DNA of 64,000 nucleotides. Origin: Candidatus Sulfotelmatobacter sp. (GTDB taxonomy: Bacteria > Acidobacteriota > Terriglobia > Terriglobales > Acidobacteriaceae). This document shows positions 42,962 to 57,492 of this stretch, one piece after another. How positions within the stretch are numbered: the first letter of the stretch is position 1; every line of letters starts with the position of its first letter. A program made the translations under genes and the position numbers. The notes under the pieces are model-generated. The model ran no database searches and had not been told where the DNA came from. It worked only from the letters and a program-made list of their open reading frames with translations. The stretch is taken from assembly GCA_035309485.1 (NCBI GenBank), contig DATGFC010000041.1, forward strand, positions 5,426-69,425, written 5' to 3'.

Positions 42962-44775
42962 TCATCGCAGGAACCACAAGAATGTTCCCCCCAGCAGCGC
43001 CGTGCCTGCCGAGAGCCACGCAACATAGTCGCCGGAGTGCCCGCTATGAATCCTTCGCAGCGACCCGTTACCCAGCTCCAGGCTTCGCATGAACCTGAGC
43101 GTCCGACCAAACTTCTTGCGGAAGACGCTGCCCAGGGCCAGGAGCAGCGCGAGAATTCCCGCGACGCTGGTGCGCAGAATGGATGAGGAGAGAGACTCGG
43201 CCGGAGACATTTCCGGCGGCGGAGGCTCGGCATTGTCGAGAACAGTACTCGCGTAGCTGGATTGATTCACGAAAGTCTGCGCGTTGGCTTCCGCGAGACC
43301 GCGCACGCGCGGAATCGCCGGCAAGCTGATCGCGAGCAGAATCAGCGCCGCTGCCGGCAACCACATCACGATCGGAGTTCGCCCGTGCATTTGTTCGGTT
43401 TCGGCTCGTTCTTCGATTTGAGAGGCTTCATCGGTCGGCGCAGGTTCTCCCCATCCAAGAAAAATCCGAAAGAAGACGCGCAGCACGGCGGCCGCGGTAA
43501 TCGTTCCACAAAAATAAAGAGGTAAGGCACCCAGCTCTGGTGATGAGCGATCGCATCCTCGGAGATCATGCTCTCGCCCAGTAACGTCCCGAAGGGCCAG
43601 CATCCCGCCAGGCCCCAGGCTCCCAGTACGAACAACGCACCCGTGAACCACAAGCCTCGCCCGCGACCGTGCAGATGATCTTCACCAATTTTTTGCAGCC
43701 GGTGCAGGACGATTCCGGCGCAAAGGAATAATGCGCCCTTGATCGCGCCATGCGAAAGCGCGTATAGCAGAAATCCGCCCAGCGCTTTGGGGCTGAACAA
43801 CGCGATGCCTGCCAGCATGAGTCCCGCATGGGAGATCGTTGAAAATGCCAACAAGCGTTTGAGGTGATGCTCGGCGTAGCACATGAAGCCGCCGACGATG
43901 CAGGTAAGCGCCGCGAGAATTAAGAAGATTTCGCGCAAGGCCGTGATGTGCCCCGCCAGCGCGCCATGAAAGGTCGTCCAATAAATGCGGGCTACCGCAT
44001 AAATGCCAAGCTCGACCATGACACCGGAAAACAGCACGCACACGGGGCTGGGCGCGACTGCGTGGGCATCCGCCAGCCAGAAATGAAAAGGAACGATCGC
44101 GGCTTTGGCCATGAATCCCACCGCAATCAGCAAAAAGGCGAGCACGACGGGCCGCCCCGCATGCGTGCCCAGTGATCGTCCAATCTGCGCGAAATTCAGC
44201 GCCCCGGTTTCCGCATAGAGCAGCCCGATCCCGAGTACGATCATGAAAGCACCCACTGTGTTCACGACCGCGAAATTGTATGCGCCCTGCAGCGGCGCCG
44301 GTTCCAGTGTCTTCAGCCCGCACAGCGCAAAGGCGGAAACGCTCATCAATTCGAAAAAAACAAACAGGTTAAACAGGTCGCCGGTATAGCTGAAGCCGCA
44401 CATCGCGGCCATGAAGATCAGCATCAGCGGCTGAAAATGATTCTCGGTATCCTCAAAGATTTTCCACGAAAAAATCAGTCCTGCGGTGGTAAGCAAAGCC
44501 ACCAGCATGGCAATCGAGGCGCCGATCGCATCAACGCTGAAGCAGATTCCGAGTGCAACCTGGGGGTTGCGTGGCCACCAGTTGCCAAACCAGTACGTAT
44601 ACGGTTGCAGCCATACTTCTCGCAGAATGACGATCGTCATCCACAGCGTCGCGCCCGCAGTGGCGATAGAAAGGGCGTCGCAGAATCGGCGGCCCAGCCA
44701 TTGCCCGGCGAGCGCCAGGAACGCCGCCACAATCAGGGGAATCGCAACTGGCTGCGGGATGAGTGTAGTCAGCAT
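42962..44775 (-). pseudogene. mrpD: Mrp/Mnh antiporter subunit D (NuoN/MbhH-like) with an apparent frameshift near 43520..43540
   Basis: Frame A (43366..44775) is a good NuoN/MnhD-like protein until ...ISEDAIAHHQSW and then turns non-membrane-like. Frame B (42962..43651) continues with ALPLYFCGTITAAAVLRVFFRIFLGWG...HSGDYVAWLSAGTALLGGTFLWFLR. The total span of 1814 nt is one short of a multiple of three. Confidence 0.65.
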
Positions 44776-45122
44776 CAGCCCGTTAGAATCCGTAATTCTT
44801 CAGGATCGATGGTATTGGCGAGTTCGTTCGCCTTGACCACCATGGCCAACAGTAATGCCGCCACGGTTGCCTCCACGACAATGTCGGTCAGCATGAGCGC
44901 CTGCACCAGGGGATCGACGACCGTTGTGCCCACGGGGATATCGGCGAAGACAGGTGCCGTCCCTCCCACTTTGTAACCGACCGTCAGCAGCAGAACGTAA
45001 GTCGAAGTCTGCAGCACGGCGAGGCATACTACCTGGTGAACCAGATTCTTGCTGGTCACAATTCCGTAGAGTCCCCACAGAAAAATCCAGGCCGCAATGA
45101 AATAAGGCACATGAAGAATCAT
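44775..45122 (-). CDS. mrpC: Mrp/Mnh antiporter subunit C (NuoK/MbhG-like)
   Basis: MILHVPYFIAAWIFLWGLYGIVTSKNLVHQVVCLAVLQTS. The start ATG at 45122 overlaps the mrpB stop (ATGA), and its stop overlaps the mrpD ATG. Confidence 0.85.
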   Translation of the reverse strand: MILHVPYFIAAWIFLWGLYGIVTSKNLVHQVVCLAVLQTSTYVLLLTVGYKVGGTAPVFADIPVGTTVVDPLVQALMLTDIVVEATVAALLLAMVVKANELANTIDPEELRILTG

Positions 45123-45877
45123 GATTTTTTTCGTAACTCCGCTTCCACGATTTTGCGCAGGTAGATCTGCGTCAGCTGCACGAATCCACCCGTTACTTCC
45201 ACACCTACGCACACGCTGATGACTGCAATCGTTCCCGAAGAAAATAAGTCACCTGTTGTTCCGAGCGGAACGAAGTTCGTGAGGAAATGCGTACCAGCCA
45301 GCAGCGCCGAAATTCCGATGATGGCGTACCCTCCCGCCCCTCCGCACTCGGCCACTTTCACCAGCGCGCTCGATGTGATCTTTTCGAAAGCCCCGACATT
45401 GCCCGCCAGATAGAGCAGGATTGGTGCCGATGCCAGAATCACACCACCCTGAAAGCCGCTCCCCGGAGTTAATTGCCCGTGAGTAGCAATGTAGAACCCG
45501 AATACGATCATCAAGCCCATGATGGCCTGGGTCGATATCCGCAATGCGTCCGACACTGGCAGTTCGTCCTGCTCTTGGGCATTTGAATTGCGCTTGTGGC
45601 CCTTCTTGTCGTCGGGACGGAACAGCAGAAGCACTCCCAGCACGGCGGCGAACAGGATGAATTCCTCGCCCAGAGTGTCGAACGCGCGATAGTCGTAATT
45701 GATGGCGTTCACCACGTCGGTGGCGTGCCGCTCGTAGACGGCTACCTGTGTGACCACGTAGCCGTAGGGTCCTCGATAATCGCCCATGGGCGGCAAATCT
45801 AGAAATGCCAACACGAAGATGACGGCGAGGGCTGCCGCAGACACCAGAAACAAAGTTGTGCGAGCGCGCAAGTTCAT
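45119..45877 (-). CDS. mrpB: Mrp/Mnh antiporter subunit B (MnhB domain)
   Basis: NAINYDYRAFDTLGEEFILFAAVLG is an MnhB signature. The protein is polytopic. Confidence 0.85.
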   Translation of the reverse strand: MNLRARTTLFLVSAAALAVIFVLAFLDLPPMGDYRGPYGYVVTQVAVYERHATDVVNAINYDYRAFDTLGEEFILFAAVLGVLLLFRPDDKKGHKRNSNAQEQDELPVSDALRISTQAIMGLMIVFGFYIATHGQLTPGSGFQGGVILASAPILLYLAGNVGAFEKITSSALVKVAECGGAGGYAIIGISALLAGTHFLTNFVPLGTTGDLFSSGTIAVISVCVGVEVTGGFVQLTQIYLRKIVEAELRKKS

Positions 45878-46137
45878 TTGCTTCCTTTGCGCTGCTTTTG
45901 CTGGTTATGCCGGCGCATCCTGGTGAGCGCCAGCAGGATCATCAGCGGCAGCATGACCGCCCCGATGGTGATTTGCGACAGCGCCACATCTGGCGCCTGG
46001 AAAATAAAAAACATCAACGCGCACAGCAGCCCATAAAAACTGAGCGTGACCACCTGGGGCTTGGGATCGCGAGTCAGAACTACCCCGGGGGCGGCCACGG
46101 CCACCAGCAGCAGGCTCATCCATTGCAGCAATCTCAC
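45874..46137 (-). CDS. DUF4040 / MbhD-like small membrane subunit (equivalent to the MrpA C-terminal segment)
   Basis: 87 aa with three hydrophobic helices. It contains FFIFQAPDVALSQITIGAVMLPL and has 4-nt overlaps with both neighbouring genes. Confidence 0.7.
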   Translation of the reverse strand: MRLLQWMSLLLVAVAAPGVVLTRDPKPQVVTLSFYGLLCALMFFIFQAPDVALSQITIGAVMLPLMILLALTRMRRHNQQKQRKGSK

Positions 46138-46490
46138 GGCTTCCGCTCCGGCATCACGAGTTCGTCGTTGGGATGAATGGGCACCTCTTCTCCCGGTTGC
46201 GGATTCCAGTCCTTGGTTTCCGCAATGCGGAAGGCGCGCGCCGCCGCGTGCGTCACTACAGTGTTCATGCCGGTCAATACCAGCGTGGTCGCCAGCGCCT
46301 TGAATGATTCTGGCTTCAGGCCGTCCTGAAGAAAGATCGCGATCGTGAATAAAGCCGCGCTGATCGAGGCGGGCGGCGAAATAAAGTGCATGCGCTGGTA
46401 GGGATCTCTCATCCGCAGCATGCCAAGTACGGAGAGGAGCGTCAGCAGCACCCCAATCGCCAGCAGAACATCGATGGTGATGGCTTTCAT
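46134..46490 (-). CDS. mrpG: Mrp/Mnh antiporter subunit G
   Basis: VLGMLRMRDPYQRMHFISPPASISAALFTIAIFL is MnhG-type. Confidence 0.85.
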   Translation of the reverse strand: MKAITIDVLLAIGVLLTLLSVLGMLRMRDPYQRMHFISPPASISAALFTIAIFLQDGLKPESFKALATTLVLTGMNTVVTHAAARAFRIAETKDWNPQPGEEVPIHPNDELVMPERKP

Positions 46491-46508
46491 GGGTGGTGAA
46501 AGGTTTCC

Positions 46509-46760
46509 TTAGAGATGGCGCGCCAGAAAGCGGGCGAAGACGATTCCGCCGCCAAACGACATGAGAGCAAGGGTGAGCGCCAGATCCATCATAGGCATTC
46601 GCTGGAAGGCCATGGTCAGTAACATCAGCAGCAGCGTGATCACCACTCCCGCCATATAAAACGCGATCAGCCGCTGGCGCACCTCTCCGCTGACCGCAAC
46701 CCAGGTGAGTGGCACCAATGTGAAAATCATCACTTCGGCAGCCAGTTCCCAGGCGTTCAC
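46509..46760 (-). CDS. mrpF: Mrp/Mnh antiporter subunit F
   Basis: 83 aa with three transmembrane segments, lying between the E and G subunit genes. The sequence is MnhF-like. Confidence 0.8.
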   Translation of the reverse strand: MNAWELAAEVMIFTLVPLTWVAVSGEVRQRLIAFYMAGVVITLLLMLLTMAFQRMPMMDLALTLALMSFGGGIVFARFLARHL

Positions 46761-47257
46761 GCTCGGGCTCCTAACTGCTCAGTCATCTGGGGAACCGAAC
46801 TGCGTTTGATCTGATGAAACAGCAGCGTACGTTGATTTGGATTGATACCCAGGACAATGAAGTTGGGTGCAGCCGTGGTATAGACCACGGCTAAGACCCG
46901 GCGCGCAGTTCGGTGCGGATCTTCCTTCGTGCCTGGTTCATAGCGCGACACGCGGAAGAGCGACTGCCCCCGCTCCACTCCCAGTGCATCTTTGGCGGCG
47001 ACCGACAGGACTTCCCAGGTGCCCGAAAGCAAATACCAGGACAGGCGCCAACAAGTCAGCAATTCACCTAGTGTGGGCGAAAACGGCGCAGGATAATTGA
47101 CCGTTACCACCAGCATTCCCGCAGCCGTCAAAGCCGCAGCTATGACGCCGATCAGAAGTTCATGCAGTGAAAAGGTTCCAACCAAAACCAGCCAGAAAAG
47201 ATAGGAGGAGGGCAGCGTCACACCCAAAATAGCCGCGAATTTCCCTGCATTTTTCAC
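46757..47257 (-). CDS. mrpE: Mrp/Mnh antiporter subunit E
   Basis: 166 aa with a GTG start and two N-terminal transmembrane segments followed by a soluble domain, as in MnhE. It is the first gene of the operon. Confidence 0.8.
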   Translation of the reverse strand: MKNAGKFAAILGVTLPSSYLFWLVLVGTFSLHELLIGVIAAALTAAGMLVVTVNYPAPFSPTLGELLTCWRLSWYLLSGTWEVLSVAAKDALGVERGQSLFRVSRYEPGTKEDPHRTARRVLAVVYTTAAPNFIVLGINPNQRTLLFHQIKRSSVPQMTEQLGARA

Positions 47258-47335: not shown

Positions 47336-47809
47336 CTACGTCAAGCTCTTCGCCGATTCCTTCAGGTACGCCAGCACTTGCTCGGCGTGCCCGTCGGCCT
47401 TGACGTTCTCGAAAACGTGTTCGATCTTCCCATCCGGACCAATGATGAACGTCGTGCGCGCCACGCCCCTGACTTTCTTGCCGTACATGTTCTTATCTTT
47501 CACGACGCCAAAGGCCTCGGCCACTTTCTTATCGGCATCTGCCAGCAGCGGAAACGGAAGCTTTTCCTGCTCCTGAAACTTCTTCTGTGCCTTCGAGGTA
47601 TCGGGGGAGACGCCAAGCAGCACGGCGCCGGTTTTTTGAATCTGTTTATATGTATCGCGGAACCCGCGAGCCTCGACGGTTCAACCGGGGGTGTTGGCCC
47701 GTGGGTAAAAATAGAGAACGACGGTCTTGCCGCGCAGGTCCTTGAGCGCGATCTCTTTCCCGTTCTCGTCGGGCAAAATAAAGTCGGGAGCCTTATCATT
47801 GACTTGCAT
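47336..47809 (-). CDS. bcp: Bcp/PrxQ-type peroxiredoxin with TGA (candidate selenocysteine) at the peroxidatic Cys position
   Basis: My own translation reads MQVNDKAPDFILPDENGKEIALKDLRGKTVVLYFYPRANTPG[TGA]TVEARGFRDTYKQIQKTGAVLLGVSPD...AYLKESAKSLT. The TGA is at 47681..47683. The track shows only the C-terminal 95 aa. Confidence 0.7.
47655..47669 (-). promoter_or_regulatory. SECIS-like hairpin downstream of the in-frame UGA of bcp
   Basis: The mRNA reads UGA-ACCGUCGAGGC-UCGCGG-GUU-CCGCGA. The stem is 6 bp, starts 11 nt after the UGA, and has a G/U-containing apical loop. Confidence 0.45.
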
Positions 47810-47828
47810 GAGTATTTCTCCGGGAAAA

Positions 47829-49448
47829 ATGAAGTTGAGCGCCCATCGCGGGGAGTCAAAAGCCCCGTACTCTCGCGAAAAGCGCGGAAATCGGGGAGCA
47901 TCCCTGCTTTCGAGACGCCCTCAATCGAGCAGTTTACACCGCTTGGTGGGCCCATTTTGTGCGCTCGCAGTTCTTTTGGGAATGGCTGCGAGCCCAAAGG
48001 CAACGGCGCAAGAAGAACGCCCGCAGATCCCGGTCGGCGAGCGAAAATTCCCCGCAAAAAAAGATACGGGCCCGCGCGCGGTCGCGATTCTGCGCATGAC
48101 TGACAACAACAAGGCATCCCTCGTACCGATCGCCATTCTGATCAACGGCAAGTTCTGGGATGCAACCGCGTATAAGGCGGACCCGGTTCCGATGGCGCTC
48201 GACTCAGGCACAGTTTATGAGGCCGAGCGCACCGGCAGTTCTCTGGGACTGTTCACGGTCAGCAGCGCGCTGCATAGCAACGCGCCTAACAGCCAAGCGC
48301 CGTGGATTGGAACGGGGGCGTGGAAGCCCACCGGCACCGAAGCACCGAAACCCGCGCTGAAAGCCAATATCACGCCGGTCGGCATCGAGTCCGATGACGC
48401 GCCGCCCAGGCTGACCCATGAGCCCGCCAAAGCGGCGCCCGCGAACACCGCTCCGGCTTCGACCACGGCCCCTGTTTCTAATGCACCGCCCGCAACCGCG
48501 CCCAAGCCCAGCGGCAGCTCTGATAGCGACGAACCGCCTCGCCTGAACAGACCGACTTCGCCTGCACCGTCTCCTGCCCCTGATTCCAAGCAGCCGGCAC
48601 AGTCTGCCCCAACTTCTCCCGCACAGAATGATCCCAAGTCTGGCCAGGCCAAGGACACGAAATCCAATGTCGCGACTTCGGACAGCGGTGCCGACGAGGC
48701 CAATCGCCCCATTTTGCGCCGTGGCAAGCCGGCAGAATCGTTCGCCGATGAGGATGTGCCCGGGTATAGCAAGCCGGGCGCAAACAGCGCGTCCTCTTCG
48801 ACCAGCGGCGAAAAAGCTGTCGAAGCCAAAGCCGCCGCTCCTGCCGACGTCAAGCTGATTCCCGCCATCTCTGATGCCGGCGGTCCACCGCCGCATTCTT
48901 ATGCCTTCGAGTGGATTAAGGGTGAAGAGGAAGACCGGCGCGCGCAGATGATCGCTCTGGCCAAGCAACAGGTGCAAGCCTACGTGACGGCGCGGGACCG
49001 GGCGAAAATCACGCCCACGCATCCTCAGCCCTCGAAGCGTGCTGCCATCAAAGTCAAGGAACCGCTGCTCGACAATGTGCAGATGACCGCGTACGATCTG
49101 TGGAATTCGAATCAGCCGATCATCGTGCTCAGCGCGCAAGCGCACCTGCCGCCACCAGCTCCGGGAGCCCCGCAATCCGCGGTCTCGTCCGACCTGCAGT
49201 ACTCGGTGATGCTCGTCGCCTATCCTGATATCTACAACAACCTGCACACACTGTATTCAGGCGTCACCGACAAGTTTCATCTCGACCTCACGCCGCAACT
49301 CGAACTGGTTGACGCCGTTGACGCCGACGGTGACGGGCGCGGCGAGTTGCTGTTCCGGGAGACCTCCGACATGGGCACGGGCTGGGTAATCTACCGCGCC
49401 ACCGCGGACAAGCTTTACAAGATGTTCGACAGCTTGCGTTCGGAGTAG
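47829..49448 (+). CDS. Hypothetical secreted protein with a Pro/Ala/Ser-rich central region
   Basis: The hydrophobic signal-like segment LVGPFCALAVLLGMAASPKATAQ is present. The C-terminus contains DADGDGRGELLF (FG-GAP/Ca-loop-like). The start is uncertain: ATG 47829, or TTG/GTG at 47943/47946. Confidence 0.55.
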   Translation: MKLSAHRGESKAPYSREKRGNRGASLLSRRPQSSSLHRLVGPFCALAVLLGMAASPKATAQEERPQIPVGERKFPAKKDTGPRAVAILRMTDNNKASLVPIAILINGKFWDATAYKADPVPMALDSGTVYEAERTGSSLGLFTVSSALHSNAPNSQAPWIGTGAWKPTGTEAPKPALKANITPVGIESDDAPPRLTHEPAKAAPANTAPASTTAPVSNAPPATAPKPSGSSDSDEPPRLNRPTSPAPSPAPDSKQPAQSAPTSPAQNDPKSGQAKDTKSNVATSDSGADEANRPILRRGKPAESFADEDVPGYSKPGANSASSSTSGEKAVEAKAAAPADVKLIPAISDAGGPPPHSYAFEWIKGEEEDRRAQMIALAKQQVQAYVTARDRAKITPTHPQPSKRAAIKVKEPLLDNVQMTAYDLWNSNQPIIVLSAQAHLPPPAPGAPQSAVSSDLQYSVMLVAYPDIYNNLHTLYSGVTDKFHLDLTPQLELVDAVDADGDGRGELLFRETSDMGTGWVIYRATADKLYKMFDSLRSE

Positions 49449-51924: not shown

Positions 51925-53061
51925 GTGAAGACGCAGGCTGCAATTTCGCGCGAAGAAGCGGTTCGCCTGATTCGCTGCGCGGACCGGGATCTGCCGGAGC
52001 TGCTCGAGGCCGCGCAGGAGGCCAGAGATGCGTTCAAACCCGGCGCCATCACCTATTCGAAAAAGGTTTTTCTACCCCTGACGAATCTCTGTCGTGATTA
52101 TTGCGGGTACTGCACGTTCCGGAAGGATCCCGGCGAACCAGGCGCGCACACCATGCTGCCTGATGAAGTGCTGGCAGTCGCTCGAGCCGGGGAGCAACTC
52201 GGATGCACCGAGGCCCTGTTCAGCTTGGGCGATAAGCCGGAGTTGCTGTTTCCCGAGATGCGCGAGACACTTCGTCAACTCGGGTACAAATCGACTCTGC
52301 ATTATCTCGAGGCGATGTGCGAGCTTGTGCTGCGGGAGACCACCTTGCTGCCGCATCCCAATCCGGGGCTGCTGAGCTCCGAGTGGATTGCGCGACTGGC
52401 GCAGGTTTCGCCCAGCATGGGGCTTATGCTGGAGACTACGAACGCGGCGCTGCTGGCTTCCGGGGCGGCGCATGATAACGCTCCCGATAAAGTTCCCGCA
52501 AAGCGGCTGCGCACCATCGAAGAGGCGGGCAAGCAGGGCGTTCCGTTTACCACGGGATTGCTGATCGGCATCGGTGAATCCCCCGAGGATCGCGTCGATA
52601 CGCTGCTGGCGATCGGCAAGTTGCAGGAACGCTTCGGGCACATTCAGGAGGTCATTGTGCAGAATTTTCGCGTGAAGCCCGAGGTCCCCATGGCCCGCTG
52701 GCCGGAGCCTTCCCGCGGTGAGATGCTGCGGGCTGTGGCGGTAGCTCGCTTATTACTGCCTGAGGTGAATATTCAGGCTCCGCCCAATCTTTCTGCACCG
52801 TACTATGAAGAGTTGATTGACGCCGGGATTAACGACTGGGGAGGGATTTCGCCGCTGACCCCCGATTTCATCAATCCGGAAAAGCCTTGGCCGTACCTGG
52901 AGCAGCTTCGCCTGCGCACCGAGGCCAGGGGATTTGAGCTGCGGCAGCGCTTGCCGGTCTATCCGGAATTCGTGGCTGCAGTGGTGAACCGGCCGGGCTT
53001 GTTGGCCGATCGAGTGCGTGCCGCATCTGGCGAGGACCAGCTGGCGCGGAGGGCTGCATGA
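51925..53061 (+). CDS. cofG: 7,8-didemethyl-8-hydroxy-5-deazariboflavin (FO) synthase subunit CofG (radical SAM)
   Basis: GTG start. It carries the CRDYCGYCTF radical-SAM cluster motif and is followed by cofD with an ATGA overlap. Confidence 0.88.
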   Translation: MKTQAAISREEAVRLIRCADRDLPELLEAAQEARDAFKPGAITYSKKVFLPLTNLCRDYCGYCTFRKDPGEPGAHTMLPDEVLAVARAGEQLGCTEALFSLGDKPELLFPEMRETLRQLGYKSTLHYLEAMCELVLRETTLLPHPNPGLLSSEWIARLAQVSPSMGLMLETTNAALLASGAAHDNAPDKVPAKRLRTIEEAGKQGVPFTTGLLIGIGESPEDRVDTLLAIGKLQERFGHIQEVIVQNFRVKPEVPMARWPEPSRGEMLRAVAVARLLLPEVNIQAPPNLSAPYYEELIDAGINDWGGISPLTPDFINPEKPWPYLEQLRLRTEARGFELRQRLPVYPEFVAAVVNRPGLLADRVRAASGEDQLARRAA

Positions 53062-54044
53062 TTTGCGTTTTGAGCGGCGGGACCGGAGGCGCGAAGTTCG
53101 TCGATGGTTTGCGCCAGGTCATGCCCGCGGAAGAGATTACGCTGGTCGTCAACACCGGCGACGACCTGCTGTGGTGGGGCCTGTACGTTTCCCCCGACAT
53201 TGACTCGATCACCTATGTCCTTTCAGGAATGCTGAGCCGGGAGCGGGGATGGGGCGTGAAGGGCGATACATTCCTTTGCTTGCAGGCCATGGGACAGCTG
53301 GGCGAGCCCACATGGTTTCACACCGGAGACCGCGATCTGGCGATGCATCTGCTGCGCTCGCGGCTGCTGGCCGAAGGCAAAACGTTGCTGGAAGCGACCA
53401 AAGTGATCTCTGACAAACTCGGGGTCAAGGCACGGGTGCTGCCCATGAGCAACTCGCGGGTGGAGACCCGCGTGGATACGCCCATCGGCGAGTTGAGCTT
53501 CGAAGAATATTTTGTGCAGCGCTGGTACCAGGATCCAGTCAAGTCGGTGCGCTTTGCCGGCGCTTCGGATGCGGAGCCGGCGCCGGGAGTGATCGAGGCA
53601 ATTACGTCTGCCGATGCCGTGATCGTCGCGCCAAGCAATCCGGTGACGAGCATTGGCCCGATTCTGGCGGTCCCTGGGATTCACGACGCGCTGCTGCGTG
53701 CACGCGGAAAAGTCGCGGCGATCAGCCCGATTGTGGGCAACGCGCCGGTCGCGGGTCCGGCGGGCATTCTGATGCAGGCGCACGGGCTGCCCTGCTCCAT
53801 TGGCGGCGTGGCCCACGCGTACGAAGATTTTCTGGACATTCTGGTCTGCGATACGCGCGACGCCCGTGCGGCCGATATGCTGCGCCAGAATGGCCTACGC
53901 GTGCACTGCACGCAGACGATTATGCGCAGCTCCGACGATAAGGCCGCGCTGGCGCGCGAAGTGCTGGCCTGCCTGGCAGCGGACGCATCCAGCGACAAAC
54001 CTGCCCCGGCCGTTCCTCTCCCAGCTTCGGACTCCCAACCGTGA
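53058..54044 (+). CDS. cofD: 2-phospho-L-lactate transferase (FO phosphotransferase)
   Basis: MICVLSGGTGGAKFVDGL...VNTGDD is characteristic of CofD/FbiA. Confidence 0.9.
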   Translation: MICVLSGGTGGAKFVDGLRQVMPAEEITLVVNTGDDLLWWGLYVSPDIDSITYVLSGMLSRERGWGVKGDTFLCLQAMGQLGEPTWFHTGDRDLAMHLLRSRLLAEGKTLLEATKVISDKLGVKARVLPMSNSRVETRVDTPIGELSFEEYFVQRWYQDPVKSVRFAGASDAEPAPGVIEAITSADAVIVAPSNPVTSIGPILAVPGIHDALLRARGKVAAISPIVGNAPVAGPAGILMQAHGLPCSIGGVAHAYEDFLDILVCDTRDARAADMLRQNGLRVHCTQTIMRSSDDKAALAREVLACLAADASSDKPAPAVPLPASDSQP

Positions 54045-54697
54045 TCCTGGTTCCCATCAAAGACACTGCGGCGGCGAAACAGCGGCTGGCAGCGGTGCTC
54101 GATCAATCTTCACGCACGGACCTGGCGCGTGCCATGCTGCACGATGTGCTCACTGCATTGCATCTCTGGAAGAACCGCCCGCCGGTCGGCATCGTGACCG
54201 GCGACTCCTACGCCAGCAATCTGGCGGCGGAGTATGGATTCGAGATCATTCCGGACCGCGACAATCCCGGAGAGACCGGAGCCATCGAGATGGCGACGCG
54301 TGCGTGCGTGGAGCGCGGGATAGCGGAGACACTCGTGATTCCGGCTGACATCCCGCTGCTTCAAGCTTGGGAATTGGAAGAAGTTTTGCGGAGCGCGCCC
54401 TCCCAAGGCAGCGTGCTGGTTCCTGCCGGCGATGGCCGCGGCACCAACGCGGCTCTGCGGCGGCCGGCCGATTTGTTTCCTTTGCGTTTTGGCAACGACA
54501 GCTTCAAGCCGCATCATGCGGCGGCGCAGGCCACGGGCAAACCCTGCGTCGTGCTCAAGCTTCCCGGAATCGCAGTCGACGTGGACAATCCCGCCGACCT
54601 TCTGCAACTGATTTCCTTGCCGGGTGAAACCCGGGCGCAAAAGTTGGCCCGGACATGGAATTTGACCGAACGCTTGCAGGCCGCGAGATCGTTGTGA
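54041..54697 (+). CDS. cofC: 2-phospho-L-lactate (or PEP/3PG) guanylyltransferase
   Basis: The GTG start overlaps the cofD stop (GTGA). ILVPIKDTAAAKQRL...GDGRGTNAL is CofC/FbiD-like. Confidence 0.85.
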   Translation: MILVPIKDTAAAKQRLAAVLDQSSRTDLARAMLHDVLTALHLWKNRPPVGIVTGDSYASNLAAEYGFEIIPDRDNPGETGAIEMATRACVERGIAETLVIPADIPLLQAWELEEVLRSAPSQGSVLVPAGDGRGTNAALRRPADLFPLRFGNDSFKPHHAAAQATGKPCVVLKLPGIAVDVDNPADLLQLISLPGETRAQKLARTWNLTERLQAARSL

Positions 54698-55470
54698 ACA
54701 AGCGTGCATCCTCCAAAGTCCACGAGGTTCGGCTGATTCCCATCCTTGTTCAAGACGATATTCAGGCGGGAGATTCCATCCCCTTTAAATTGCTGGACTC
54801 CATGCGCTCGCAAAGGCTGAAGTTCCAGGCCGGGGACGTTCTCGTCGTAAAACATAAGATCGTCTCCAAGTCTGAAGGGCGACTGATCGATCTGTCTACG
54901 ATTCAGCCGTCGCCAGAGTCGGTGGAGTGGGCAAAGCAGTATGATCTCGACGCGCGCGTGATCGAACTGGCACTGCGGGAAAGCCGCTCGGTGATCCGCC
55001 GCAAGAACGGGGTACTGATCACCGAGACCCATCACGGATTCTTGTGCGCGAACAGCGGCGTCGATATGTCGAACGTGGACGGGGGCGGACACGCTGTGCT
55101 GTTGCCGGAAGATGCGGATCGATCCGCCGCCGACCTGCGGCGTGTCCTGAAAAAACGCACCGGGGTTTCCATCGCCGTGATCATCAGCGACAGCTTCGGC
55201 CGGCCCTGGCGCGAGGGGCTGACTGACTTTGCCATTGGCATCTCCGGGATGAAGCCCCTGCGCGACGATCGGGGACGGCGCGATTCCCAGGGCTACAAAC
55301 TGAAGGCTAGCATCGAAGCCGTCGCCGACGAATTGGCATGCGCAGCGGGTCTGGTATGCGGCAAGCTCAATCGTGCTCCCGCGTGCCTTGTGCGGGGGTT
55401 CCAGTACCAGGCAGGCGTGGGCGGAATAAAGGAACTGTTGCGGCCTCCGGAAACCGATCTATTTAGGTAA
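54694..55470 (+). CDS. cofE: Coenzyme F420-0:L-glutamate ligase (stand-alone, no fused nitroreductase domain)
   Basis: VVKHKIVSKSEGR...GFLCANSGVDMSNV...VIISDSFGRPWREG are CofE motifs. The GTG at 54694 overlaps the cofC stop (GTGA). The track start at 54655 is the alternative. Confidence 0.85.
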   Translation: MNKRASSKVHEVRLIPILVQDDIQAGDSIPFKLLDSMRSQRLKFQAGDVLVVKHKIVSKSEGRLIDLSTIQPSPESVEWAKQYDLDARVIELALRESRSVIRRKNGVLITETHHGFLCANSGVDMSNVDGGGHAVLLPEDADRSAADLRRVLKKRTGVSIAVIISDSFGRPWREGLTDFAIGISGMKPLRDDRGRRDSQGYKLKASIEAVADELACAAGLVCGKLNRAPACLVRGFQYQAGVGGIKELLRPPETDLFR

Positions 55471-55558
55471 GACTTCCGCTACACTGGGAGAACGTGCTGG
55501 CGCGAGTTTTGACTCCACCGGCAGAGACCTCGCAAGTCGCTTCTCGATGGAGAGGATT

Positions 55559-56791
55559 ATGCACGCCGAACTTTCTCTCTCGGAGCTGGAAAGCTTTCCT
55601 TCGCTGGATTGGCGCGACATTGCTCCCCGCGTGACTCCTTCCGTGCGCGGCTCTCTCGAAAAAATTCTGGAAACGCAAAATGGTGCTTCACTTTCTCTCG
55701 AAGAGTGTTACGCGCTCGCGAATTCGGAAGGTGACGATCTGCTGGGATTGCTCGTGGCCGCGAACCTGCTACGTGCGGAACTCGTTGGGAACATCGTTAC
55801 GTACGTGGTCAATCGCAATATTAATTTCACGAATATCTGTTTTGTGGGATGCAAGTTTTGCGCCTTCAGCCGCGGGCCGCGTGAGGCTGACACTTACTTT
55901 TTAACCATGGAGCAGATCGGGCAGAAAGCGCGCGAGGCTTGGCAACTGGGCGCGACCGAGGTTTGCATTCAAGGCGGGCTGCCGCGCGATCTGCCCAAGT
56001 TTCATTATCGTGACGTTCTGCGGGCGGTGAAGCAATCGGTGCCGCAGATGCATATTCACGCCTTTTCGCCCATGGAGATCGTTTATGGCGTGGAACTCAC
56101 CGGCATGCCGCTGGCCGACTATCTTTCGATGCTACGCGACAACGGCCTAGGCACCCTTCCGGGGACAGCCGCCGAGATTCTCGATGACGAAATTCGGCAC
56201 ATCCTGTCGGCCAATAAGCTTTCCACTGCTCAATGGATTGAAGTGATCCGCACGGCTCATCTCTGCGGCATTCGCAGCACCTCAACCTTGATGTATGGCC
56301 ACGCGGAGAAGCCGGAGCATTGGGTCAGGCAGTTGCATCTCTTGCGCGAGATCCAGTATGAGACCGGCGGCTTCACCGAGTTCGTGCCTCTGGGTTTCGT
56401 TCATCAGAACACACTGCTCTTTCATCAGGGACTGGCGCGGTCCGGGCCGACGCTGGCCGAGCATCTCAAGGTGCACGCGCTGGCCCGCTTGATGCTGGCG
56501 GGATCCATCAACAACATTCAGGTTTCGTGGGTGAAGTTGAACCGGAGGCTATCGCAGCTTTGCCTGCACGCGGGCGCGAACGATTATGGCGGCACGCTCA
56601 TGGAAGAAAACATTTCGCGCGAGGCCGGAGCCACCGCCGGGCAGTACACCAGCCCGGAAGATTTTCAAGCGCTAATTCTGGAAGCCGGGCGTATTCCAGC
56701 CGAGCGCAACACCACCTACTCGCGCATCCACATCAAAATGCCGGTGGAGGAATTCACCGCGGAGCAGTCGCTCCAGGCTGAGTTTGCATGA
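55559..56791 (+). CDS. cofH: FO synthase subunit CofH (radical SAM)
   Basis: NICFVGCKFCAF cluster motif. The ATG at 55559 is preceded by the ribosome-binding site GGAGAGG. The ATG at 55547 is the alternative. Confidence 0.88.
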   Translation: MHAELSLSELESFPSLDWRDIAPRVTPSVRGSLEKILETQNGASLSLEECYALANSEGDDLLGLLVAANLLRAELVGNIVTYVVNRNINFTNICFVGCKFCAFSRGPREADTYFLTMEQIGQKAREAWQLGATEVCIQGGLPRDLPKFHYRDVLRAVKQSVPQMHIHAFSPMEIVYGVELTGMPLADYLSMLRDNGLGTLPGTAAEILDDEIRHILSANKLSTAQWIEVIRTAHLCGIRSTSTLMYGHAEKPEHWVRQLHLLREIQYETGGFTEFVPLGFVHQNTLLFHQGLARSGPTLAEHLKVHALARLMLAGSINNIQVSWVKLNRRLSQLCLHAGANDYGGTLMEENISREAGATAGQYTSPEDFQALILEAGRIPAERNTTYSRIHIKMPVEEFTAEQSLQAEFA

Positions 56792-57492
56792 GCGCGCATG
56801 ACGTCAGCCCAGTTCGCCCCATCGCCATCATTGGAGGCACCGGCGCTGCGGGCATGGGCCTGGCCTTGCGCTGGGTGCGCGCCGGAGAGACTGTCATCAT
56901 CGGATCGCGCGAGGAAGCTCGCGCCCGGCAGGCTGCGGCCAGCATTCAGCGCAGGGTCGGCGAGCATGCCCGGATTTCCGGCAGGGAGAACAGTTCCGCC
57001 TGCGCCGCCGCGGACATCCTGATGTTGACTGTCCCATTTGAAGGGCAGGCGTCGCTGATCAAGAAACTCAAGCCCTCGATTACCCCGGGCAGCATTCTGA
57101 TTGATGCCACTGTGCCTCTGGCTGCGGGACTCGGCGGGCGCGCGTCACGGACTCTTGGCGTATGGCAGGGATCCGCCGCCCAGCAGGCCGCCGAACTCGT
57201 CCCCGACGACGTCAGCGTAGTAGCCGCGTTTCACAACGTCTCCGCTGATCTGATGGGAGGAGATAATCCGCTGGACTGCGACGTAATCGTGTGCAGCGAT
57301 GATCCCGACGCGGCGCAACTCACTCGCGATCTCGCCGCCAAGATTCCCGGCATCCGCCCGATCGATGGCGGCAGGCTGGAGAATGCGCGCATCGTCGAAC
57401 AGATTACTGCCTTGCTGGTCGGCCTCAACATGAGGCATAAAGGCCACAGCGGAATCCGCATCACCGGATTGCCGCCCACCGCGTACCGCTGA
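56788..57492 (+). CDS. npdG: NADPH-dependent F420 reductase
   Basis: IAIIGGTGAAGMGLALRWVRAGETVIIGSR is a Rossmann N-terminus of the NpdG/Fno family. It has an ATGA overlap with cofH. Confidence 0.85.
   Translation: MSAHDVSPVRPIAIIGGTGAAGMGLALRWVRAGETVIIGSREEARARQAAASIQRRVGEHARISGRENSSACAAADILMLTVPFEGQASLIKKLKPSITPGSILIDATVPLAAGLGGRASRTLGVWQGSAAQQAAELVPDDVSVVAAFHNVSADLMGGDNPLDCDVIVCSDDPDAAQLTRDLAAKIPGIRPIDGGRLENARIVEQITALLVGLNMRHKGHSGIRITGLPPTAYR

Follow-up and report, generated by a model that had tools for sequence, protein, structure and literature searches.

The analyzed window, a stretch of DNA of 64,000 nucleotides (64 kb), contains on the minus strand, at positions 47336..47809, a complete coding sequence predicted to encode a thiol (selenol) peroxidase of the Bcp/PrxQ type. 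The predicted product has 157 residues, including selenocysteine (Sec) at position 43. From the ATG at 47809, the minus strand reads MQVNDKAPDF...YFYPRANTPG, followed by TGA and TVEARGFRD..., and stays open to the TAG stop codon at 47336-47338, giving 157 codons and a stop. The TGA codon, located at 47681-47683, is the sole interruption of this frame. In the mechanical list of open reading frames (ORFs), the peroxiredoxin frame is cut into pieces of 42 and 95 amino acids, and public gene calls at ENA cut it in the same way on a contig of identical sequence (ERZ27279678, contig k141_1856783). A ribosome-binding site, GGAG, was read from the sequence on the minus strand at 47818..47821, 8 nt upstream of the ATG, and the position of the start Met is common to all orthologues. 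The frame of 157 codons from the ATG at 47809 to the stop at 47336, as proposed in the first-pass annotation, was found in place, and every other element of that description was confirmed at its coordinates.

An operon for a multisubunit cation/proton antiporter of the Mrp/Mnh type (43366-47257, minus strand) begins 78 nt past the stop codon of the peroxiredoxin gene, on the same strand. Its content is MrpE-like, MrpF, MnhG, MbhD, MnhB, Oxidored_q2, and Proton_antipo_M. This operon is absent from three related loci (L005, L082, and L083), and a Pur_DNA_glyco gene is found there instead; because of this absence, the operon looks like an insertion. The divergent gene at 47955-49445 (plus strand) encodes a protein of approximately 490 amino acids with a long low-complexity middle part rich in Pro, Ala, and Ser and with no Pfam match. 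It is kept beside the peroxiredoxin gene in every relative examined, and it shares 51% identity with its counterpart in L088 (7157-8572). A complete-looking cluster for coenzyme F420 biosynthesis (51925-57492, plus strand) is located a few kb from the peroxiredoxin gene. According to the precomputed Pfam matches on the identical ENA contig, this cluster includes two radical-SAM genes of the CofG/CofH type, genes for CofD, CofC, F420 ligase, and an F420-dependent oxidoreductase, and then a gene of the nitroreductase family.

The predicted protein was scored against family models with Cys placed at position 43 in place of Sec. A full-length AhpC-TSA domain (Pfam: PF00578) was found with an E-value of 2e-42 and 144 bits against a cut-off of 26. 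The NCBIfam equivalog model for Bcp, the thioredoxin-dependent thiol peroxidase (NF006960), was matched with 169.8 bits, above its cut-off of 140. The closest solved structures are those of Bcp proteins (5enu, 3gkk, and 5iiz), which align with the predicted protein from end to end with E-values of 1e-35 to 1e-41. Two families of Sec-containing peroxiredoxins were also considered and rejected, the score being 59.3 bits against a cut-off of 270 for PrxU (NF040737) and 33 bits against a cut-off of 298 for the Prx-SUH selenoproteins (NF045827). By these curated models, the predicted protein is a Bcp/PrxQ-type enzyme that lies outside both PrxU and Prx-SUH.

The UGA codon 43 (47681..47683, minus strand) stands at the position of the peroxidatic residue in the motif P36-x-x-x-T40-x-x-U43. 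Its counterpart in the structures 5enu, 3gkk, and 5iiz is the peroxidatic Cys of TPGCT, and in about 120 orthologues it is a TGC or TGT codon, in agreement with the first-pass annotation, which had placed this TGA at the peroxidatic Cys. All the elements of the PxxxTxxC(U) motif and the conserved Arg are present, namely P36, T40, U43, and R118; the latter lies in ARTTF, aligned to ERSTF of 5enu and 5iiz. In E. coli Bcp, the resolving Cys is located at CP+5. At this position, residue 48, the predicted protein has Arg encoded by CGC (47666..47668, minus strand), as the earlier description had it, while 2-Cys relatives have UGC. Thirty Sec forms read EARGFRD here, versus EAC.FRD in the Cys forms. 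The atypical 2-Cys subtype is defined by a resolving Cys that lies either at CP+5 or in helix alpha-3. The protein of the window, with Arg48, contains no Cys at all. Counting the gene of the window, Cys is absent from all 30 Sec forms with Arg48 and a full-length frame. Because no Cys is present, the atypical 2-Cys cycle of Bcp would be impossible for the protein of the window, and an external thiol would have to resolve the selenenic acid in what can be called a "1-Sec" mechanism.

A scan with one genome per species revealed 80 related loci, nearly all of them in metagenome-assembled genomes (MAGs) of Terriglobia/Acidobacteriota. A TGA at exactly codon 43 was found in 16 of the 80. One Sec form, L017, is located on a complete chromosome (OY970205.1). 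A scan of metagenomes enlarged the set to a total of 36 TGA genes, 34 of them distinct, from Terriglobia genomes and from soil or peat metagenomes; the search for UGA-containing orthologues suggested by the first-pass annotation was therefore productive. These TGA forms fall into several clades, interleaved with Cys forms. All 34 distinct genes stay open for 106-115 codons past the TGA, with neither a frameshift nor a second stop. Downstream of the TGA, the median pairwise dN/dS is approximately 0.09, with saturated dS (> 1), compared with 0.12 upstream (first 17 genes), and the downstream part is therefore as constrained as the rest. Decay of this part in relatives had been named beforehand as the mark of a true pseudogene; strong purifying selection was found instead.

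Within the window, the TGA at codon 43 is the sole one with a strong coding signal on both sides. Other selenoprotein genes were sought in the window by a scan for TGA read-through with a codon-usage score and by a scan for the motif of the hairpin core described below, and all candidates were rejected, being antisense to long ORFs or lacking an upstream TGA. A general reassignment of UGA was rejected as well: TGA ends 11 of the 37 long frames in the window and also several of the orthologues themselves.

Downstream of the UGA lies a candidate SECIS hairpin, UCGCGG-GUU-CCGCGA (47655..47669, minus strand), with the 5' arm at 47669-47664, the loop GUU at 47663-47661, and the 3' arm at 47660-47655. 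The first base of codon 48 takes part in a C-G pair of this hairpin. The hairpin starts 11 nt after the UGA, and the distance from the UGA to the loop is 17 nt; its position, its spacing, and the G and U of its apical loop are all as first described. The SECIS of E. coli fdhF is likewise spaced 11 nt from its UGA. The hairpin alone has a folding energy of -8.8 kcal/mol (z = -2.6), and only 1 of 200 shuffled sequences was as stable. A 71-nt fold around the UGA was no better than its shuffles (z = +0.7). Thus, the RNA folding proposed in the first-pass annotation bore out the local hairpin and gave nothing remarkable for the wider 71-nt region; only the local hairpin is special. In RNAalifold, this hairpin was the only consensus structure predicted.

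In the Sec genes, the hairpin is constrained at the nucleotide level. Across their whole length, no invariant run is longer than GCGGGTTCCGCGA; it covers the hairpin, whose 13-nt core is GCGGGUUCCGCGA. Among the 48 degenerate codon columns with an invariant residue in Sec genes, only 4 use a single codon, and 3 of these 4 are the consecutive codons 49-51 (GGG-TTC-CGC). In contrast, the same codons vary freely in the Cys forms, e.g., TTT is used 22 times versus 20 for TTC. The first G of the loop is invariant in 34 of 34 Sec genes and is changed, from GGG to GGA or GGC, in 3 of the 5 Cys genes that have Arg48 (Fisher p = 0.0011). The hairpin region is also more stable in Sec forms, with means of -8.8 and -11.8 kcal/mol, than in Cys forms, with a mean of -5.9 kcal/mol (p = 1e-9).

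Covariation in the stem was absent from the first 17 genes, in which the stem is invariant, and a compensatory pair was seen only in the sample enlarged with metagenomes. Here, two genes (L117 and L131) read CGC-GAG-TTT-CGC, and the top pair is changed from G-C to A-U, with Gly replaced by Glu on one side and a silent substitution on the other. In this short and mostly invariant stem, the covariation amounts to one pair in two probably related genes. At the pair formed by the first base of codon 48 (alignment columns 19 and 31), CG was found 28 times and UG 3 times. A second clade (L044, L052, L057, and L067) keeps Cys48 and has the same upper stem and loop on top of a lower stem that differs in being longer and in containing a bulged G.

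The bSECIS model quoted in a 2026 review (PMC13188914) asks for a loop of 3-9 nt with an upper stem of 4-16 bp, a distance of 16-37 nt from the UGA to the loop, a minimum free energy of at most -7.5 kcal/mol, and a G within the first two positions of the loop, as a rule with G or U after it. The hairpin of the window has a 3-nt loop, a stem of 5-6 bp, the loop sequence G-U-U, a distance of 17 nt from the UGA to the apical loop (alignment columns 7-23), and an energy of -8.8 kcal/mol, and it agrees with the model in all four respects; the A-U variant in L117 reaches merely -6.7 kcal/mol. Rfam gave no match to a SECIS or any other relevant family at the gathering score over the whole window; around the site, only unrelated matches at chance level were obtained with E-values up to 10. 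The element resembles the SECIS of the E. coli fdhF type and the bSECISearch consensus in being a hairpin in the coding region just past the UGA, with a G and then a U in the loop and with distance, stem, and energy within the model. It is, however, much smaller than the fdhF element, having 15 nt, 5-6 bp, and a 3-nt loop compared with approximately 40 nt. The different lower stem and bulged G of the second clade, as well as the lack of an Rfam model match, are further differences. The short bacterial SECIS proposed in the first-pass annotation is well supported by the nucleotide constraint specific to UGA forms, the single compensatory change, and the fit to the four bSECIS constraints, and it would act by binding SelB.

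No tRNA genes were found by ARAGORN in the 64-kb window, and no tRNA-Sec was found in 24 related loci. Homologues of SelA, SelB, and SelD were likewise not detected in the window by tblastn. The queries, the three E. coli proteins, served for screening only; the SelB matches were then confirmed by a curated model. In 1.13 Mb of related DNA, neither selA, selD, nor tRNA-Sec was found, and so selB does not lie in a selAB operon there.

A bona fide selB gene was found 0.5-2 kb from the Sec gene in three related lineages (L029/L140, L005, and L088/L089). In L029, the order is the peroxiredoxin gene, an ORF of 185 amino acids, and selB, whose product scores 377.6 bits with TIGR00475 against a cut-off of 242. 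The SelB of L140 is 98% identical to that of L029. In L005, selB lies on the opposite strand and is cut by the end of the locus. The loci L088 and L089, which were located via SelB, have the peroxiredoxin gene, an ORF of 186 amino acids, and selB in the same order as L029. Of the loci with at least 3 kb of downstream DNA, 3 of 22 with a Sec form and 0 of 86 with a Cys form have selB as a neighbor (p = 0.0075), with few lineages behind this count. Close SelB homologues are very numerous in the Terriglobia lineage, and some of them, from Candidatus Sulfotelmatobacter or Acidobacteriia, are named selenocysteine-specific elongation factor by NCBI. Among the genes of the Sec machinery, selB alone was demonstrated, in the DNA of relatives, and the full set was found in no genome examined.

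Two further genes were observed around selB. The conserved ORF of approximately 186 amino acids between the Sec-peroxiredoxin gene and selB (L029, 3555-4112; L088, 9257-9817) has no NCBIfam match. A CMD/AhpD-like gene (PF02627) lies next to selB in contigs of Candidatus Sulfotelmatobacter (L085, 12046-12573, minus strand; also L086 and L087); AhpD-like proteins are another known selenoprotein family.

Taken together, the locus is very probably a genuine and functional gene for a Sec-containing Bcp/PrxQ peroxiredoxin of Terriglobia (Acidobacteriota), as the first-pass annotation had proposed. The support consists of the conserved UGA, the selection downstream of it, the constraint on the hairpin with one compensatory change, the fit to the bSECIS model, and the presence of selB in relatives. 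By analogy with the known bacterial Sec pathway, when the UGA at codon 43 enters the A site, the hairpin at 47655-47669 would recruit SelB-GTP with Sec-tRNA(Sec). Selenocysteine would then be inserted instead of termination, and 114 further codons would be translated. Following the chemistry of the family, Sec43 in the PxxxTxxU site, together with the conserved Arg118, would attack peroxide as a selenolate and yield a selenenic acid. An external thiol, for example thioredoxin, would have to reduce the oxidized Cys-free enzyme directly. We infer that SelB binds the hairpin, that selenium is incorporated, what the reductant is, and that the organism's own genome encodes the machinery.

The alternative raised together with the selenoprotein was a pseudogene, i.e., a nonsense mutation from TGC or TGT to TGA that inactivated an ordinary bcp gene and left a fragment of 42 residues as the product. 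A one-base change would suffice for this, gene callers treat the locus in this way, and the Sec machinery is absent from the 64-kb window. Nevertheless, 34 distinct genes in several clades share this TGA and are intact downstream, with neither a frameshift nor a second stop and with dN/dS of approximately 0.09 at saturated dS. Moreover, the TGA forms have their own hairpin constrained at the nucleotide level, and selB is adjacent in relatives. Inactivation by mutation is therefore very improbable and is contradicted at the level of the family; at most, this one genome may have lost the machinery very recently. An error of assembly or sequencing that altered one base of an ordinary TGC codon is the least credible explanation of all. 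Such an error would require just the single-base difference from TGC that is seen here; however, the identical sequence is present in an independent ENA assembly, and 34 distinct genes, obtained in many projects, have the TGA, in every case with Arg48 or with the alternative extended stem.

A different possibility is that the UGA is recoded with a residue other than Sec. A SelB-type factor could deliver a tRNA(Sec)-like tRNA-Cys(UCA), so that Cys is inserted, or an acidobacterial allo-tRNA suppressor could insert Ser or Ala. There are precedents for both: in deltaproteobacteria, selC* tRNA-Cys(UCA) has a SelB* of its own, and the allo-tRNAs of Acidobacteria are possible nonsense suppressors (Mukai et al., PMC5389517). 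The inserted residue cannot be read from the sequence alone. On the other hand, selC* was found in Firmicutes, Thermodesulfobacteria, Nitrospirae, and Proteobacteria and not in Acidobacteria (PMC5389517), and the SelB of the relatives scores as a standard selB equivalog. With Ser or Ala as the peroxidatic residue, the enzyme would be inactive, which cannot be reconciled with the purifying selection. Insertion of Cys would provide no evident reason to keep the UGA and the hairpin over a TGC codon, and the loop decays in the TGC revertants. Recoding with a residue other than Sec is thus also very unlikely, and standard bacterial insertion of Sec has the best support.

Sec-containing peroxiredoxins (Prx family, PF00578, with TxxU/PxxxTxxU motifs) are an established family of bacterial selenoproteins, with 12 members known by 2006 (PMC1794560; PMC13188914). 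In the same year, Acidobacteria were credited with three selenoprotein families (PMC1794560). The gene of the window shares with the Prx selenoproteins the AhpC-TSA fold, the predicted Sec in PxxxTxxU, Cys homologues in sister organisms, a putative SECIS right after the UGA, and the frequent exchange between Sec and Cys. It differs from them in belonging to the Bcp/PrxQ subfamily, in its occurrence in Terriglobia of aerobic soil and peat, and in the Cys-free character of its main clade. The first-pass annotation had compared the gene with PrxU of Eubacterium acidaminophilum. This comparison is apt for function, as Sec replaces the peroxidatic Cys in PrxU, an enzyme shown experimentally and dependent on thioredoxin, and it fails for family membership (59 bits against the cut-off of 270): the protein of the window would represent another Prx subfamily and has 157 amino acids versus the 233 positions of the PrxU profile. 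With the Bcp proteins of E. coli, Xanthomonas, and Burkholderia, the protein of the window shares an equivalog-level match, the length, the active-site motif, and the conserved Arg. In contrast to these proteins, it has a predicted Sec at the peroxidatic site, Arg in place of the resolving Cys, and no alternative Cys.

In one NCBI assembly (GCA_020073465.1), an orthologue is called as a product of 157 amino acids, although its codon 43 is TGA. This gene call spanning the TGA implies that the NCBI pipeline already reads the orthologue as a selenoprotein, the call being the sole basis for saying so. The novelty of the system is hence modest and consists of a predicted Cys-free 1-Sec Bcp, a tiny putative SECIS over the former codon of the resolving Cys, the linkage to selB, and the apparent reversions from Sec to Cys; selenoprotein biology is left unchanged in principle. 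In public gene calls, the gene is split or shortened, so that an antioxidant enzyme that is abundant in Acidobacteriota from soil and peat would be systematically misannotated and the dependence of these organisms on selenium undercounted.

Part of the hairpin follows from the need to encode the peptide ..C/R-G-F-R-D.., and a weaker version can form in some Cys genes (L028, -6.0 kcal/mol). This weaker hairpin suggests how the element may have arisen and that it is bound up with losing the resolving Cys. A tentative scenario, which we consider possible although rather unlikely, is that the SECIS was built from the codons of the resolving-Cys motif (..A-C-G-F-R-D..). A change from UGC to CGC, replacing Cys48 with Arg and creating a C-G pair, together with the fixation of GGG-UUC, would have strengthened a latent hairpin. 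The gain of Sec would then have coincided with the loss of the resolving Cys, turning an atypical 2-Cys enzyme into a Cys-free 1-Sec enzyme. If so, a constraint on RNA structure would have reshaped the catalytic cycle of an enzyme. The same scenario holds that this peroxidase may be a principal reason for which aerobic soil Terriglobia keep the Sec machinery, because several lineages have selB as its neighbor.

Five Cys genes keep Arg48 (L082, L083, L084, L093, and L122), and the nearest neighbor of each is a different Sec gene. These five encode 1-Cys Bcp proteins, and their hairpins are in different stages of decay. They look like the products of several independent reversions from Sec to Cys. 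For Prx, the 2006 survey inferred only events in the direction from Cys to Sec (Zhang et al., PMC1794560), whereas the Terriglobia genes with Cys and Arg48 and with decaying hairpins point to the direction from Sec to Cys. The Sec forms, the fresh Cys revertants with decaying hairpins, and the 2-Cys forms make up a natural series that is useful for studying both the exchange of Sec and Cys and the minimal requirements of a SECIS. The 2-Cys forms, having Cys43 and Cys48, are up to 96% identical to Sec/Arg48 forms in the rest of the protein (L006 versus L082, L095, and L102). With such identity outside the active site, the type of the active site must switch even among very closely related genes; recombination of the short active-site segment is a possible route.
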